Shown here: positions 26,398-40,937 of the stretch, piece by piece
Position numbering within the stretch: the stretch's first letter is position 1
Layout: each line of letters begins with the position of its first letter
Virus record (IMG/VR): IMGVR_UViG_3300027365_000007
DNA: 64,000 nt
From: a virus
Lineage: Duplodnaviria > Caudoviricetes
Direction: 5' to 3' (one strand)
Program-made: the position numbers and the translations under genes
The notes under the pieces: generated by a model
Seen by the model: only the letters and a program-made list of their open reading frames with translations
The model's database searches: none
What the model was told of the DNA's origin: nothing

Positions 26398-26541
26398 TGG
26401 GGATGGCGGGGATTCGAACCCCAACCCGGAGATAGCCATTATTTGGTTGTACGGGCCAAAAACTGACACCTCGGGGCTTGTATTGCAAATGTTTCATAGA
26501 CCGGCTAAAACATAGACAACACGCAGACCGTCTCACCATCC
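26398..26541 (-). ncRNA. tRNA-like 144-nt RNA (acceptor stem, D-arm and T-arm; no canonical anticodon loop; large insert)
   Basis: 5' GGATGG pairs with 3' CCATCC; D-stem AGAC/GTCT; T-arm GGGG-TTCGAAT-CCCC; ends ...CCCCA. Confidence 0.7.
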
Positions 26542-33429: not shown

Positions 33430-34242
33430 TCATGTCCATAACGATGTACGAATATTAAGAAGCCGTCTTAACATTTTTTCATCGTCCTTCTCAAACTCAT
33501 CTTCAAGATTATTCATTCGATCTAAACTTTCATGCAACTTCTTGTAATCATCTGGGTGATCTAGTGCAAATCTTGCATCTAGTATCAGCGCCCCTGAATA
33601 CTTTTTATTATATGTAACCCATGGTTCTTGGGACATATCTAATCGCTCTGACTCAGCTACGTCTTCCCTTTCATCTAGAATCTCAGTATACCACATATAC
33701 AATGCAAACAGTTCCGTATAAAAATCTTTGTTTTCATCATCATCATTAGTGCGCTCTATGATATGGTGTAAGCCCAGTTCCTTTGAGCGAAAGAATGCTT
33801 CTGCTATACCAAATACATCAAAATTATTATTCAACCATAGTCGCTTTTTGTATGCCTCATACAATGGATGGTCCTTGTCCATTGAAATAAATTCCAACCA
33901 AGCCAACTCTATTTCAACATAATCAACGACTAAAGCAAACATGGCATGTAGCATTCTCACATCTGCATCATAGTATCCGGGCGGTAAGGTAGTTTTCACA
34001 ACATGCAAACGTTGTGTTGTACGATACCTAACCCAATCCTTGACCTTATCTAAATGAGGTTTTATACATGCATGATAGTCCCTAGCAAAAAACATATCAT
34101 AAAGGTACGATATTCTATTTGGAATTATACGAAATAGTACAAACCTGAATTTATGATCCTTTTTATATTCATGCAAACTACTGTACTCGGGCTCAAGTTT
34201 CCTTAAGCCCTTAAGTACTAGCTTACTAATTTCTTCAATCAT
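33430..34242 (-). CDS. Hypothetical protein (270 aa)
   Basis: Long ORF in operon. Confidence 0.7.
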   Translation of the reverse strand: MIEEISKLVLKGLRKLEPEYSSLHEYKKDHKFRFVLFRIIPNRISYLYDMFFARDYHACIKPHLDKVKDWVRYRTTQRLHVVKTTLPPGYYDADVRMLHAMFALVVDYVEIELAWLEFISMDKDHPLYEAYKKRLWLNNNFDVFGIAEAFFRSKELGLHHIIERTNDDDENKDFYTELFALYMWYTEILDEREDVAESERLDMSQEPWVTYNKKYSGALILDARFALDHPDDYKKLHESLDRMNNLEDEFEKDDEKMLRRLLNIRTSLWT

Positions 34243-35023
34243 GATCTACCAGCCTACTACCTAACGAAAGATTTTTGATTTCATTAAACGACAAGTTTTT
34301 AAATGCATTACATTTAATCTTGTGTCGTGTATATTCACGCGATTGAGGCTTTTTACCATCTGGGATTTTTGCCCAAATATGATCAGGAATCACATTATTT
34401 TCAAGACGCTTATATACATAAACACCATATTTGAAATCGTCTGGAAATTCATCCCAAACAACAGCACACTGATCTTCGAGCATTTCGATAACATCTTCCC
34501 GACTTCTCTTATGCATCTGCTTTTTATTCAGGAAGTGATGACCGACCATAGATACCGAGTTACGAACACAATCATGCTGACGCCATAGAATAGAATTAAC
34601 GGCTTCGTTATAATCAGGGACGTTGAATACTCTGGCATCAAAGTGTGGTACACTTTTTGAAACATGCTCTGGCCATACTTTCATAGCTTCAATAACAAAT
34701 TTCGATGTAGCTGTCGCTGATAAAACACTGACCAACTTCTGAATCTTAGCATCGAAAAATAGGTCTGGCTTAGGCACAATAATTGAAATCTCATCACTTT
34801 GGGTATATGCCAAGCATCCATCACATTCCTTCATGACATGTTCGGCGGTTCGGGTCATAACATGTCTAAAGTCTTCGTCATACGGACGTTTAAAGTTTCG
34901 GGTGAAGTTACTAAACCCGCGTCCATCTAAACGAACAATGACTGGAAGATTTTTATCGAGCCGTTGTTCAGTTTGCTTCTTTTCGTACATTTTCATACGC
35001 TTAGCAAAATCGGTATTGTCCAT
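34235..35023 (-). CDS. thg1: tRNA(His) guanylyltransferase Thg1-like 3'-5' polymerase
   Basis: RMK.YE, VRLDGRGFS.FT, YTQSDEIS, FDARVF, WRQ.DC.RNS. Confidence 0.92.
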   Translation of the reverse strand: MDNTDFAKRMKMYEKKQTEQRLDKNLPVIVRLDGRGFSNFTRNFKRPYDEDFRHVMTRTAEHVMKECDGCLAYTQSDEISIIVPKPDLFFDAKIQKLVSVLSATATSKFVIEAMKVWPEHVSKSVPHFDARVFNVPDYNEAVNSILWRQHDCVRNSVSMVGHHFLNKKQMHKRSREDVIEMLEDQCAVVWDEFPDDFKYGVYVYKRLENNVIPDHIWAKIPDGKKPQSREYTRHKIKCNAFKNLSFNEIKNLSLGSRLVDHD

Positions 35024-35047
35024 TGCACTGTCCTTTTATATTATTCA

Positions 35048-35272
35048 TTAACCAAAGTTGATGTATGATGCTCGACTTAGGATATAGTCAATGACACCTT
35101 CATTGACGTATGCAAGAACACGTTCACCGTTAATGGTCTTGCACTGATAGTTCTCGTTGTCGATGACATGAACAACATTCTCGGCAAATTCAACTTCAAT
35201 TCTTTTACCATGCAGGCTTCCACCTACAACATTAACTTCATCATTAGACACTACAGTTTTAATATCTGACAT
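35048..35272 (-). CDS. Hypothetical protein (74 aa)
   Basis: RBS GAGGA; own promoter-like region upstream. Confidence 0.6.
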   Translation of the reverse strand: MSDIKTVVSNDEVNVVGGSLHGKRIEVEFAENVVHVIDNENYQCKTINGERVLAYVNEGVIDYILSRASYINFG

Positions 35273-35311
35273 AATGCTTCCTCATTCGTGTTTGTTCTAG
35301 TATACCAAAAA

Positions 35312-36376
35312 TCATTCAGAAAGCAAATCTTTAATGATATAATAATGATCTTCGAAAAACTGATCTCTCATTTTATCGATTTCGAACAGAGAAAACCACC
35401 CTGCATGTTCTTTTTGACTCTTCGTCTTACGTACTTTTGGGAAACCTTTTAGGCTTGTAACGTTATCTAGTTCAATAAGACCTGCATTAGTAATGATGCG
35501 TCCACGTAGTGATCGATTGGGATCATCATAGGTCTTTACCTTACGAACGTTTGAGCTGAGAATGTTTTCATGGACTTGAATATTGGTATCTTTTTTCAAG
35601 TTCTTAACGACACCTTCCTCAATGGTATCAACTTGGGCAAGAAAGCCCCCCGGCAAACAATAAAGGTCTTTCCCAACCGCGCCTTTTCTTTTAACAACCA
35701 ATACATAGCCTTTATAATAAACGACAGCATCTGTCGTTACGAACGTAGGTGGGAAAGGCGCAGCCTCCCATTGTGACTTTTGAAACATGACCGCTTCATA
35801 TTCTTCCTTGAGAGTTTCAAAGTCATAGCCTTTACGGTATGTATCATACCACTCTCCTTTTCTAAACTTATCATAAAGACTAGTCATATTGGGTGCGATA
35901 TGCAAAGAAATGTCTTCCATACCATAGAAGTCATGATAAAGCTCCTGACTGATGCCCATGTCTACCTTATTCACATTAAACATAGGTTCAGGGAAAATGT
36001 TTTCATAACGATGGTGTGATTCATTCGAAACATACACATTAAGCTCAAGATCTTTACGGTTCACACACAAGGTATTAAAGCGTTCATTCAATTTCGAATG
36101 AATATCTGTAATCCATTGTCGCTTATTGACAGGATTATCATTCAGAACACCGATGGAAAAATCTTCTTTTTCCAATCCACCATTGACTTCGATGGTTTTT
36201 AGAATATTATTTGCACGATCATTCTTGTCAAAGGGCATTGTATAGTCTTTAGAACGATCAGCCGAACATACGAAGATTAGTACGTGGTCGTTCTCATCCG
36301 ACGCCTTCCTAAGAACGTGGAAGATTTCGCGTGTTACAAAAGAGAACTTACTTACTACTATTCCGATCTTAGCCAT
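35312..36376 (-). CDS. NadM-Nudix (NMN adenylyltransferase / ADP-ribose pyrophosphatase) homologue with degenerate motifs
   Basis: PTFVTTDAVV, VLVVKR, LPGGF, DDPNRSLRGRIIT, FFEDHY are present; HxGH and the Nudix box are degenerate. Confidence 0.8.
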   Translation of the reverse strand: MAKIGIVVSKFSFVTREIFHVLRKASDENDHVLIFVCSADRSKDYTMPFDKNDRANNILKTIEVNGGLEKEDFSIGVLNDNPVNKRQWITDIHSKLNERFNTLCVNRKDLELNVYVSNESHHRYENIFPEPMFNVNKVDMGISQELYHDFYGMEDISLHIAPNMTSLYDKFRKGEWYDTYRKGYDFETLKEEYEAVMFQKSQWEAAPFPPTFVTTDAVVYYKGYVLVVKRKGAVGKDLYCLPGGFLAQVDTIEEGVVKNLKKDTNIQVHENILSSNVRKVKTYDDPNRSLRGRIITNAGLIELDNVTSLKGFPKVRKTKSQKEHAGWFSLFEIDKMRDQFFEDHYYIIKDLLSE

Positions 36377-36597
36377 TTATCACTATCCCTTTTCATTATT
36401 AATCTTTCTTTACGATATAAATATACTACCACAGCCACATAGCATAATGCAACTATAATATGAATAAATGGGAGTTTTGATAATACAATAGAAAACGCCA
36501 CTTTTGTAGCTATAAAAGCGGTACTGTATAATGCTATGATGTAAAATGCGCCTATAAAGGCGCATATCAGAAAAGTCTCAATCTTTTTGTTCATCAA
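36358..36597 (-). CDS. Small two-TM membrane protein
   Basis: Two hydrophobic segments. Confidence 0.6.
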   Translation of the reverse strand: MMNKKIETFLICAFIGAFYIIALYSTAFIATKVAFSIVLSKLPFIHIIVALCYVAVVVYLYRKERLIMKRDSDKWLRSE

Positions 36598-36617
36598 CTG
36601 TTAATCTCACAAGGTTG

Positions 36618-37118
36618 TCATGGATACTTTTTAAAAATATTCCTAACAATATCAATATTCATAAAATATGTTCTATTAAATTTATCAAAAATTCTGTTTA
36701 AGAAACTGGGATGTATGCAATCACGAAATACATGAAGCTGTAATATTTTACTATCTTTATATGTTTCATCTATATTAAAGCTGTTTTTCAGACCCATATT
36801 CATGTAAAATATAAACGTTTTTGTGGGTATTACATCATTGTTATCCCATATAGATGTTGTACTTACACCATCATTGCATGGTAGGTTCATACTGATAATA
36901 AAACTACATGTTTCGCACACCCCTCCATTATACTTCATCTCATAATTCATGATAGAGGCTAAGGACCGCTCATCATTTAGAACAATACCATTCTCAATCA
37001 TATAGTGTTTGAAATCATACGATTGGACATCCTTCATATAGTGGACTAAGGACGTTATGATATCAATTTCATTTTCTTCAGATGTATAGGGGTAAACGAC
37101 AATAGACTTACTCTTCAT
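36618..37118 (-). CDS. Hypothetical protein (166 aa)
   Basis: ORF in operon. Confidence 0.6.
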   Translation of the reverse strand: MKSKSIVVYPYTSEENEIDIITSLVHYMKDVQSYDFKHYMIENGIVLNDERSLASIMNYEMKYNGGVCETCSFIISMNLPCNDGVSTTSIWDNNDVIPTKTFIFYMNMGLKNSFNIDETYKDSKILQLHVFRDCIHPSFLNRIFDKFNRTYFMNIDIVRNIFKKYP

Positions 37119-37579
37119 AGATACAGTCGATAACAGAATATTGGTAATTTTATATTCTTATTTATCACCGTATCGACAATTGTTGCACTAGAAAGCATAC
37201 TGAAGTTATTCAGCAACAAAGCGTCATCTACGTTAGTTGTTATAAGATACGTATATCCACGCACGATAGTAATTAACTTTTCTTTCTTATCCAACACGTG
37301 TAGTTTATCGTAATCTACTTCTTTGTCGTTTAACCACTTTTTTACTAATTCACCATCAGGATCACTATTCGATCTTCTAGAATAGATATCTATTGTGTAA
37401 CCACGCTGTCTAAGCATATGTATCATAACCAACATATAAGCATTGATTTTTAGCCTAGACATACACCACTGATCCATCGCACCAACGGATATGGGATTGA
37501 TGCGATGTTTGTTAATCTTTTTGAGAGTACCAAAAGTGTCTGCTATGGTATTATCAAATTCAAATAATGCTACTGGCAT
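37115..37579 (-). CDS. HAD-fold (5'-nucleotidase-like) protein, first Asp replaced
   Basis: LFEFDNTIADT instead of DxD; start MPVALF. Confidence 0.55.
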   Translation of the reverse strand: MPVALFEFDNTIADTFGTLKKINKHRINPISVGAMDQWCMSRLKINAYMLVMIHMLRQRGYTIDIYSRRSNSDPDGELVKKWLNDKEVDYDKLHVLDKKEKLITIVRGYTYLITTNVDDALLLNNFSMLSSATIVDTVINKNIKLPIFCYRLYL

Positions 37580-37581
37580 AC

Positions 37582-37965
37582 TTAAACAAAGACAATACAG
37601 GCTATGATAGCATAGTGTGTCAGATGATGTACGGACTGGTCCAGTCCAAGCGACCACCAAAAGTACTTATTTTTAATATCGAAACGTCCCAACAGGTCTG
37701 GGCTGGCTTTAACCCTATCCATGATAGAATGAATTACAAAATCAAAAGCCGCCAATGCCAATGATAGAACGAACGTTTGAGTAAATGCTAACGAAATAAT
37801 AAAGGTGGCAACTGAATGTACCGCTGTGTGAGCAAATAACGGTTTCATCCATCCTACTTTTTTGAATTTTCCAAGCATATATTTTCCCTGTAGTGGAAAG
37901 TCACACAGAAAATGCTTAACTTGGAAAATGACTAGCAATACGAAAATACTAACAATCGGGTCCAT
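37582..37965 (-). CDS. DUF3307-like membrane protein
   Basis: KHFLCDFPLQ...HTAVH...H..MD...DQSVHHL. Confidence 0.75.
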   Translation of the reverse strand: MDPIVSIFVLLVIFQVKHFLCDFPLQGKYMLGKFKKVGWMKPLFAHTAVHSVATFIISLAFTQTFVLSLALAAFDFVIHSIMDRVKASPDLLGRFDIKNKYFWWSLGLDQSVHHLTHYAIIACIVFV

Positions 37966-38126
37966 TCTTATCTCCTGAATTATTTAATGTAATTTGTTCT
38001 TTATACAGGTGTGGTAATTCTACACCATGATCGATACCACTACAATAGGTCTGATTGTCAAAATGCCAATTGCGATAGTTGTAATACTCGACACTTTGAT
38101 TATTTGTTAGATTCTTATCTTCCATA

Positions 38127-38483
38127 CTACTTTAGAATTTCATTATTGATTAATGTGAGGCGAATCTTATACCGATCCCAAAAAATATGCTTAGCATTGA
38201 GAATATACTTTACGGCATTCGTATTTGATGAATGAACGTATATAACCTTAAGCTTACTAAGATCAATATCATTCCAGTAAAGGCGCTCTTCAATCCAATT
38301 GAAAATGTCTTTACCTTCAACTTCTTCACCCAAGTCATTGTCAAGACTCAATACTTCAAATTTATTGGAAGACAAGTGCTTAAAGGCTTCTTCAGAAGTC
38401 TTTGCCCACACCCAATCACCTTTTACATAATCATTGGGATCTCTTAGGTCATCGACCCATAGTTGCAATGACATAACTTTCAC
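38127..38483 (-). CDS. Stand-alone cyclic-phosphate-processing receiver domain
   Basis: LWVDDLRDP, SLDNDLG, VHSSN. Confidence 0.72.
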   Translation of the reverse strand: MKVMSLQLWVDDLRDPNDYVKGDWVWAKTSEEAFKHLSSNKFEVLSLDNDLGEEVEGKDIFNWIEERLYWNDIDLSKLKVIYVHSSNTNAVKYILNAKHIFWDRYKIRLTLINNEILK

Positions 38484-39094: not shown

Positions 39095-39098
39095 TTAA

Positions 39099-39120
39099 AA
39101 AATCCCCCGTAGGGGATTTT
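39099..39120. terminator. Bidirectional terminator
   Basis: AAAATCCCC-cgta-GGGGATTTT. Confidence 0.8.
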
Positions 39121-39227
39121 GACATCATAGAACACACTTTGGCAGGCATTAAGTATTCTAATTGTATTTATAACTCGATGTAACACTTTATATAGTCAGT
39201 TTTTATTCATCAAAACAAGTATAGTCA

Positions 39228-39470
39228 TTAAGAAGTTCTAAACATAAGTGAATAGGCATTAAAAAAGTCTCTGAATTTATCGTCCAGAGACTTTTTATGT
39301 TTTACCTTCCTGTTGTAAGATTTTCCCTTTCCTTTCTTAGGTTCTTCAACTTTATGTTTGAACATTGGTGAAGTAACCGCTGCGGCGAAATAATTATCTT
39401 TTATTTCACCTCTCCCAAGATCGTGCTTATGCTTGGGAGTATTTTTATGTTTATTTCTTCGTTTAGACAT
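39228..39470 (-). CDS. arfA: Alternative ribosome-rescue factor A homologue (80 aa)
   Basis: RBS AGGAG; GEIKDN...SPMFKHKVE..KKGKG.SYNRK.KH matches E. coli ArfA GQIKDN...DPLFRQRVE..KKGKGSYMRKGKH. Confidence 0.88.
   Translation of the reverse strand: MSKRRNKHKNTPKHKHDLGRGEIKDNYFAAAVTSPMFKHKVEEPKKGKGKSYNRKVKHKKSLDDKFRDFFNAYSLMFRTS
39261..39296 (-). terminator. Intrinsic terminator / RNase III-type hairpin inside the arfA CDS
   Basis: AAAAAGTCTCTG-11 nt-CAGAGACTTTTTT, about 30 nt before the stop codon. Confidence 0.8.
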
Positions 39471-39481
39471 AATATACACTC

Positions 39482-39868
39482 CTATAGTCTCAGTCTTGCT
39501 TTATCGATAAGTTCTATCATTTCTTCATGTGGTATTGTATTTAGGTATTCCTCAGTAGATTCCAGTGTCATCTCGGATTCATAATGTAGTAGTATCAATT
39601 CTCCTGCACAAAAGCGTGTCCGCAATGACATAGCATATACAACTCGGGCATCTTCATCAATTGTTCCACGAGGCATATTATACTTATCTTCCATTTTAGT
39701 AAAATCTTTAGCTAGAAGTTTAAAAATACCATTTAGTTTTTTACGTTGAATATCATCAGCATCTCCATTGCAGTACTCCATGTACTTGATTTTATAAAAT
39801 GAATCAACCTCTACACGCTTATTAGAAAACGTTTTTGGGTGCGAAACAATAACTACATAGGAAGACAT
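39482..39868 (-). CDS. Hypothetical protein (128 aa)
   Basis: RBS AAGG; ORF. Confidence 0.65.
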   Translation of the reverse strand: MSSYVVIVSHPKTFSNKRVEVDSFYKIKYMEYCNGDADDIQRKKLNGIFKLLAKDFTKMEDKYNMPRGTIDEDARVVYAMSLRTRFCAGELILLHYESEMTLESTEEYLNTIPHEEMIELIDKARLRL

Positions 39869-40518: not shown

Positions 40519-40937
40519 TAATAACTAGCCCATTCGGCATCTAGGTCAAATGATTCTAATTCCAATTCAGTCATTGCTTCTATTTTTGAAGCAATGACAT
40601 TTTCTACACTAAATGCTTTTTGTACATGTTTGGTCACTGTTGTTGCAATTAAAACCATTTGATTATAGTCCACTGACCGTATCCAACCATTCTGCCCTTT
40701 CCAATCCACGGAGTCGGTAATGCCTGCCTGCAATGCCATCATGGTTGAAGATATTTTAGCAAGAGAACCTTCATCTGTCTTAATGATGGTACCGTTAAAA
40801 TCGACTCCACCTGTTTCGATTTTTTTGCGTAAAGACGACAAACGTTTCAACATTCTTTGATGAGCGGTAGTGATCACTTCTGTACTATCATCGTATATGC
40901 TTATTGAGTGTGTTGTACTTTCAAGTATGTTTTTCAT
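40512..40937 (-). CDS. DUF4376-like tail-fibre-associated protein
   Basis: IETGGV.FNG..I.TD..S...WKG.NGW. Confidence 0.65.
   Translation of the reverse strand: MKNILESTTHSISIYDDSTEVITTAHQRMLKRLSSLRKKIETGGVDFNGTIIKTDEGSLAKISSTMMALQAGITDSVDWKGQNGWIRSVDYNQMVLIATTVTKHVQKAFSVENVIASKIEAMTELELESFDLDAEWASYYQ

Follow-up and report, generated by a model that had tools for sequence, protein, structure and literature searches.

The arfA locus, its carrier and its relatives

The stretch analysed here (the window, 64,000 nt) is part of a 108.8-kb IMG/VR virus record (25% complete according to CheckV), and contains a minus-strand reading frame matching ArfA, the bacterial factor that backs up tmRNA in ribosome rescue (Table 1). 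The frame starts with ATG at 39470 and ends with TAA at 39228-39230, and an identical protein was found again on a 222.6-kb contig. The record also encodes 14 tRNA genes, a DnaB-like helicase and another DNA helicase, an M15 endolysin and a T4 gp9/10-like baseplate domain. Among cultured phages its nearest relative is Salicola phage SCTP-2 (440 kb), which provided the best match to the record's helicase (56% identity), while a megablast search of the arfA region against cultured phages gave no match. Judged from its sequence, the carrier of arfA is a giant T4-related phage.

Table 1. Positions of genes and sequence features at and around the phage arfA gene, numbered along the window
Feature	Position	Strand	Remarks
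tRNA-like RNA, 144 nt	26398-26541	-	two long hairpins in place of D and anticodon arms
Thg1-like gene	34235-35023	-	RNA-repair-type block
NUDIX/cytidylyltransferase-like gene	35312-36376	-	RNA-repair-type block
cREC_REC gene	38127-38483	-	RNA-repair-type block
Non-coding block	39098-39170	-	between arfA stop and bidirectional terminator
Strong bidirectional terminator	39099-39120	.	between arfA and convergent gene; terminator scan; 110 nt past arfA stop
arfA reading frame	39228-39470	-	80 codons + TAA; Pfam ArfA match; E. coli ArfA match
Tail	39228-39260	-	10 codons + stop, hydrophobic; sequence, length and frame all variable among relatives
Terminator-like hairpin + U6	39261-39296	-	codons 59-70 of arfA; A tract, 14-bp stem, 7-nt loop
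Functional ArfA core	39297-39470	-	codons 1-58; invariant residues; E. coli ArfA alignment
Shine-Dalgarno sequence AGGAG	39479-39483	-	8 nt 5' of ATG; overlaps stop codon of upstream gene
Conserved 128-codon gene	39482-39868	-	directly before arfA in syntenic relatives, 33-50% identity

The encoded protein covered the Pfam ArfA model PF03889 from end to end (positions 1-44 of 44), scoring 64.5 bits (E = 6e-18) where the cut-off is 25.5, and a six-frame search of the genome with the same model returned 65.3 bits. It also aligned with the E. coli ArfA chains of the ribosome-RF2 structures 5U4I, 5MDV, 5H5U and 5MGP (E about 1e-6). The core is made up of a basic N-terminal extension, an RF2-side motif (G-x-I-K-D-N...A30) and an mRNA-channel motif. 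Residues G21, I23, N26, A30, K46, G47, R54 and K55 were invariant (G21, I23, N26 and A30 in an 18-sequence alignment), and A30 occupies the aligned position of E. coli Ala18, a residue whose functional role is known from the ArfA A18T mutant. The pairing of ArfA with RF2 on the ribosome is textbook knowledge, and the C-terminal basic motif of ArfA (KKGKGSY-x-RK-x-KH) sits there in the empty mRNA channel. This motif is present in the window protein as KKGKGKSYNRKVKH, with one inserted residue that is common to P0003, P0004 and P0007. The original prediction of an ArfA core ending in RKVKH was thus borne out, the full Pfam model being matched and the KH motif kept. On these alignments the window gene encodes a genuine ArfA homologue, carried by a phage, with RF2-dependent release as its predicted activity.

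The conserved gene directly upstream is probably co-transcribed with arfA. No Pfam, PHROG or Atlas lead was obtained for it, and its AlphaFold model (pLDDT 63.5) showed a mixed alpha/beta fold too uncertain for a fold search. Upstream of this gene no promoter reached the scan threshold, and a candidate at 39934-39906 (TTGATT-17-TATGGT) was discarded with a score of only 8/12. On the other side of arfA, the non-coding block shows about 90% conservation across five relatives with only 49-79% identity between their ArfA proteins, and was absent from three others (L006, L010 and L011). It contains a T4 late promoter-like TA(T)AAATA sequence, an invariant 8-bp hairpin (UAGAAUAC/GUGUUCUA, with the loop UUAAUGCCUGCCAAA) and then the terminator hairpin, and is a candidate small RNA or 3' UTR element. 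A 10-nt complement of the loop occurs in a DUF4376 gene (40719-40728), which could be due to chance.

Searching 1.84 billion representative proteins without a profile recovered 84 ArfA relatives, and further loci were added from a DNA pattern scan and a narrower alignment (A2). Most matches in metagenomes were marine bacterial arfA genes rather than phage genes. The closest relatives of the window gene (L002, a 239-kb IMG/VR record, together with L305, L226, L005, L006, L010, L011 and L013) share its gene order: M15 endolysin, a gene of about 125 codons, arfA, a convergent gene, cREC_REC, DUF3307, NUDIX and Thg1. The RNA-repair-type genes beside arfA (34235-38483, minus strand) therein form a conserved block with the same order in relatives. 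One of these contigs, L011, also carries a virion structural gene. A second context was seen in L008, in which a YqeY-like gene (PHROG 'tRNA amidotransferase') is followed by arfA and then by a 522-codon gene. The proteins of these relatives were all full-length Pfam ArfA matches (E = 1e-14 to 1e-23). Among cultured phages, tblastn with ArfA detected pf16 alone; the other matches were bacterial records listed under phages. A tree of the 41-column core was poorly resolved and placed the syntenic phage clade weakly (71/72) beside Alteromonadales-type ArfA; given this weak grouping, we do not claim a donor for the phage gene.

A terminator-like hairpin within the arfA frame

The arfA hairpin (39262-39296) directly follows the KHKK end of the core and consists of 12 Watson-Crick pairs, one G-U and one A-U pair around the loop (dG -15.4 kcal/mol), with an A5 tract on its 5' side and the U6 tract (39261-39266) on its 3' side. 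From the end of the U tract to the stop codon there are 30 nt, or 10 codons (NAYSLMFRTS). The original prediction had placed a 12-bp hairpin and U6 tract about 30 nt before the stop, and both its coordinates and its description were accurate, with 14 pairs in all. The features of an intrinsic terminator are present, namely a G+C-containing stem, a short loop and at least six U residues directly 3'. The stem is nevertheless A/U-rich (4 G-C pairs among the 14), so termination may be partial. For the 103-nt 3' part of arfA the fold z-score was -4.9, and none of 200 shuffled sequences was equally stable. When a uniform rule was applied to both strands of the 108.8-kb record (a stem of 9 or more pairs, 3 or more of them G-C, a loop of 3-12 nt, dG of -10 or below and a T run of at least 6), eight terminator-like sites were found, seven of them intergenic; the arfA site, of the same class as these seven, was the only one within a same-strand open frame. 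The arfA hairpin is not a chance structure. A stricter terminator scan did not list it, in our reading probably because part of the U run was taken as stem. Rfam returned no match at gathering score; the hairpin's weak, sub-threshold matches to unrelated small RNA families (RefA9 and others) were dismissed as terminator look-alikes.

Conservation of the hairpin in phage homologues had been proposed as a check on the prediction, and the structure was found at the same place, with covarying stems, in all ten sequences compared (the window, L002, L226, L305, L005, L006, L010, L011, L013 and L008). Each has an A tract, stem, loop, stem and U6-7, beginning directly at or after the KHK codons and lying 20-86 nt before the stop (dG -13 to -21). 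An eleventh homologue, L230, retains the hairpin with a broken U tract, so that the A tract and U6-7 accompany the stem in 10 of 11 homologues. The stems themselves differ (GUCUCUG, GUCUUUA, AUCACUG, CUCUCGG, CUCUCGA, GGUUCAUC and GAGCGCUUAUC). In a MAFFT alignment of the ten sequences (A3), standard pairs filled 93.2% of cells compared with 78.1% after shuffling, a value reached by none of 500 shuffles, and both sides had changed in 8 of 12 pairs; sliding the partners by 1-3 columns reduced pairing to 35-64%. From the window to L002, for example, one G-C pair gives way to A-U, and both codon changes involved are synonymous (Leu CTG to TTA, Phe TTC to TTT). Across the hairpin the encoded peptide varies (KKSLDDKFRDFF, KNSRKYDDYREFF and KGSSNGEPFLL), and the constraint therefore acts on the RNA.

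Sequences of the four closest relatives (alignment A4) were near-identical up to the U tract and the ATGCCT that follows it; past this point the window is longer by 22 nt than L002 and L226 and by 11 nt than L305, and these indels shift the frame in relatives that still share 79% identity in the core. Tails ranged from 6 to 28 codons with no common sequence. The hydrophobic tail noted behind the hairpin in the original prediction was found as described in the window, and the tails of relatives also tend to be hydrophobic. The frame-breaking indels and variable lengths indicate that no selection for coding acts on the tail as annotated. Such divergence fits a functional message that would end at the terminator, and argues against the 80-residue protein as the selected product.

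A terminator conserved within the frame, followed by a frame that is free to vary, is the pattern expected if the message ends without a stop codon. We consider it likely that phage arfA is a terminator-type, tmRNA-gated non-stop gene, whose truncated ArfA product would act with host RF2 to free ribosomes. The hairpin could instead be a plain leaky or bidirectional operon terminator without a regulatory role, the 80-residue protein made by read-through to 39099-39120 being the main product. The second terminator is the stronger of the two and would stop read-through arfA transcripts, and the A/U-rich internal stem is in keeping with leakiness. In L008, moreover, a co-directional gene begins at the arfA stop, which implies some read-through in that contig, or else a separate promoter for the gene. 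However, an 80-residue product predicts a conserved tail, contrary to the shifting frames and lengths seen here, and a plain terminator would not be expected at the same codon position after KHK in ten homologues with different flanking genes, or as the sole in-frame site of its kind within 108.8 kb. We therefore regard this explanation as unlikely.

Comparison with bacterial and other phage arfA genes

[quoted passage not shown] The phage gene resembles E. coli arfA (yhdL) in belonging to the same family over the whole model, in having a hairpin within the frame before the stop and a hydrophobic, dispensable tail, and in its expected logic of a non-stop mRNA and a tmRNA-tagged product. The two differ in the hairpin, which in E. 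coli is long, G+C-rich (dG about -29 to -37) and cut by RNase III, whereas in the phage it is short, A/U-flanked and of terminator type. Long G+C-rich hairpins of the RNase III type (dG -28 to -37) were found in Enterobacterales arfA genes (60 or more loci). Phage stems have 11-16 bp and the modest stabilities given above (dG -13 to -21), compared with the very stable stems of at least about 20 bp that characterise the RNase III type. This difference in length and flanking sequence assigns the phage genes to the terminator type.

The same comparison bears on whether the hairpin is a nuclease processing site (for RNase III, or for another phage or host endonuclease), with the stop codon lost by cleavage. 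Cleavage of the E. coli hairpin by RNase III (PMC10107115) provides a precedent, and both the L230 hairpin, without an intact U tract, and the 9-bp hairpin over the stop of pf16 arfA, which has no U tract, are compatible with processing. Against this, phage stems are considerably shorter than the enterobacterial ones (about 20 bp, dG -28 to -37), and an A tract with U6-7 in 10 of 11 homologues is the signature of an intrinsic terminator, making processing quite improbable as the source of a non-stop end.

Termination-based designs are also found in bacteria. In Aggregatibacter, of the Pasteurellaceae (L161 and L164), a terminator-type hairpin lies within the frame 26-28 nt before the stop, as in the phage. 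A 45-kb contig in IMG/VR (L014, IMGVR_UViG_2541047228_000006) was rejected as a phage arfA locus, as it carries Neisseria-like hscB, iscA, iscU and iscS; its bacterial arfA has a G+C-rich in-frame terminator with a U tract about 50 nt before the stop, again as in the phage. These bacterial genes differ from the phage ones in being chromosomal, in their G+C-richer stems and in their proteins, which share about 40-50% identity with that of the phage. Schaub and colleagues reportedly described a termination-generated non-stop arfA mRNA in N. gonorrhoeae in 2012 (J Biol Chem 287:29765). Marine Alteromonadales-type arfA genes (L227-L304, L116, L124, L142, L159, L170 and L178) encode proteins ending in ...E(S/P)YL(I/M/K)AA, similar to the C-terminus of the ssrA tag, and a long terminator hairpin includes their stop codon, in its 5' arm or its loop. 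They represent a third design of the 3' end, distinct from the enterobacterial and phage types. In Bacillus subtilis, brfA has an internal rho-independent terminator before its stop and provides trans-translation-gated, RF2-dependent rescue (PMC6881298, PMC8012679). BrfA (YqkK) thus follows the same terminator logic as the phage gene, in a Gram-positive host and with a protein unrelated in sequence.

Besides its viral carrier, the phage protein is distinguished from E. coli ArfA by its basic N-terminal extension (14 residues) and by one extra residue in the KGKG-SY stretch (KGKGKSY). These changes might suggest a decoy or inhibitor, which would fill the empty mRNA channel without activating RF2 or block tmRNA-SmpB. 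Yet no sequence in the alignment departs from the RF2-side motif, its Ala18 equivalent included, the insertion is found in only part of the clade, and a non-stop design would be pointless for an inhibitor wanted early and constitutively; we give this possibility very little credence. Least credible of all is a recently captured bacterial passenger gene with an inherited hairpin that the phage does not use, for although ArfA is otherwise beta- and gammaproteobacterial and the tree weakly sets the phage clade beside Alteromonadales-type ArfA, phage gene order is conserved among ArfA proteins only 45-80% identical, compensatory hairpin changes occurred within the phage lineage, and one such contig carries a virion structural gene.

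Other phage genes of the ArfA type have ordinary stop codons. In Pseudomonas phage pf16 (KU873925), an unannotated arfA of 47 codons with a GTG start lies at 131,775-131,918 (L004 2498-2641), opposite the hypothetical gene pf16_199. Much as in the window gene, the ArfA core is almost whole here (model positions 1-40 of 44, E = 1.9e-20), but the frame ends in an ordinary TGA within the 5' arm of a 9-bp hairpin with no U tract, and for this reason the gene is probably not tmRNA-gated. Pelagiphage HTVC027P (MN698241) encodes an ArfA-domain protein, gp30, that is transcribed early and late and whose regulation was not discussed (PMC12753301). In contrast to the window protein, gp30 has 58 residues and lacks the G-x-I-K-D-N motif typical of the family's N-terminal half (as judged by eye from the sequence), and its gene has an ordinary stop overlapping the next gene and no in-frame terminator. 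A pattern scan of IMG/VR identified 86 further contigs (L015-L100) that encode 31-60-residue peptides bearing the C-terminal motif of ArfA (KKGKGSY-x-RK-x-KH). These mini-peptides have several unrelated N-terminal halves, match Pfam ArfA over positions of about 17-44 only (some with weak DUF7230 scores), and all have ordinary stops; several end in ...PACA, ...DCA, ...RCA or ...LVA, recalling ssrA-type degrons. As a counterpoint to the gated design, such genes imply that gating is not needed for phage use of a factor of this kind. No paper on a phage arfA with the non-stop design was found in the literature searched.

A putative switch set by trans-translation capacity

Under the preferred reading of a tmRNA-gated non-stop gene, a two-gene transcript (the 128-codon gene and arfA) would end mostly at the hairpin and U6 tract (39258-39263), yielding an mRNA without a stop codon, at whose 3' end ribosomes would stall holding a peptide of about 70 residues. 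With spare capacity in host tmRNA-SmpB, this peptide would be tagged and degraded. If trans-translation were saturated or disabled, possibly by mass mRNA decay in infection or by defence nucleases that cleave mRNA or tRNA, the stalled complexes would be released untagged by ArfA/RF2; active truncated ArfA would then build up, recruit host RF2 and free ribosomes for phage protein synthesis. Read-through transcripts would stop at 39099-39120 and encode the 80-residue form.

The switch may extend beyond arfA itself. In the E. coli zntR-arfA pair, the non-stop 3' end of arfA was shown to affect the stability and yield of the upstream gene (PMC10107115). By analogy, the whole phage operon could sense infection through trans-translation capacity, the non-stop end of arfA gating ArfA and also setting the yield and stability of the 128-codon gene, and the unit, together with the adjacent RNA-repair-type genes, countering defences that cleave mRNA or tRNA. 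We raise this extension tentatively, as a possibility that is on balance doubtful.

The original prediction had further speculated that an anticodon-less RNA might tune the circuit by titrating SmpB. This RNA is probably the 144-nt tRNA-like RNA of the window, which combines an acceptor stem of 7-8 bp with a T arm (GGGGUUCGAAUCCCC) and a 3' CCA (MFE -53.5, z -3.7). It was not called by ARAGORN or by Rfam at gathering scores, and it is not taken as conserved, its apparent counterpart in the 239-kb relative being an ordinary tRNA. Its third acceptor pair is A-U (A3-U, not G3-U), and the RNA is therefore not alanine- or tmRNA-like. Neither tmRNA nor SmpB was detected in the 108.8-kb record or the 239-kb relative (both fragments), nor an RF-1 domain in the 108.8-kb record (a fragment). 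No link to SmpB emerged, and this part of the prediction is unsupported.

Genes for tRNAs, tmRNAs and other translation factors are known from viral genomes. What the locus appears to add, with good comparative support, is the known arfA switch on a viral genome; no description of a virus with a ribosome-rescue factor together with its feedback switch was found in the literature searched. If the switch works, the phage would gauge the tmRNA load of its host and add RF2-dependent rescue only when broken messages cost ribosomes, a loss to be expected when host mRNA is shut off and when abortive-infection systems attack mRNA or tRNA. The ungated phage versions (pf16, HTVC027P gp30 and the mini-peptides) would provide a natural contrast between gated and constitutive rescue.
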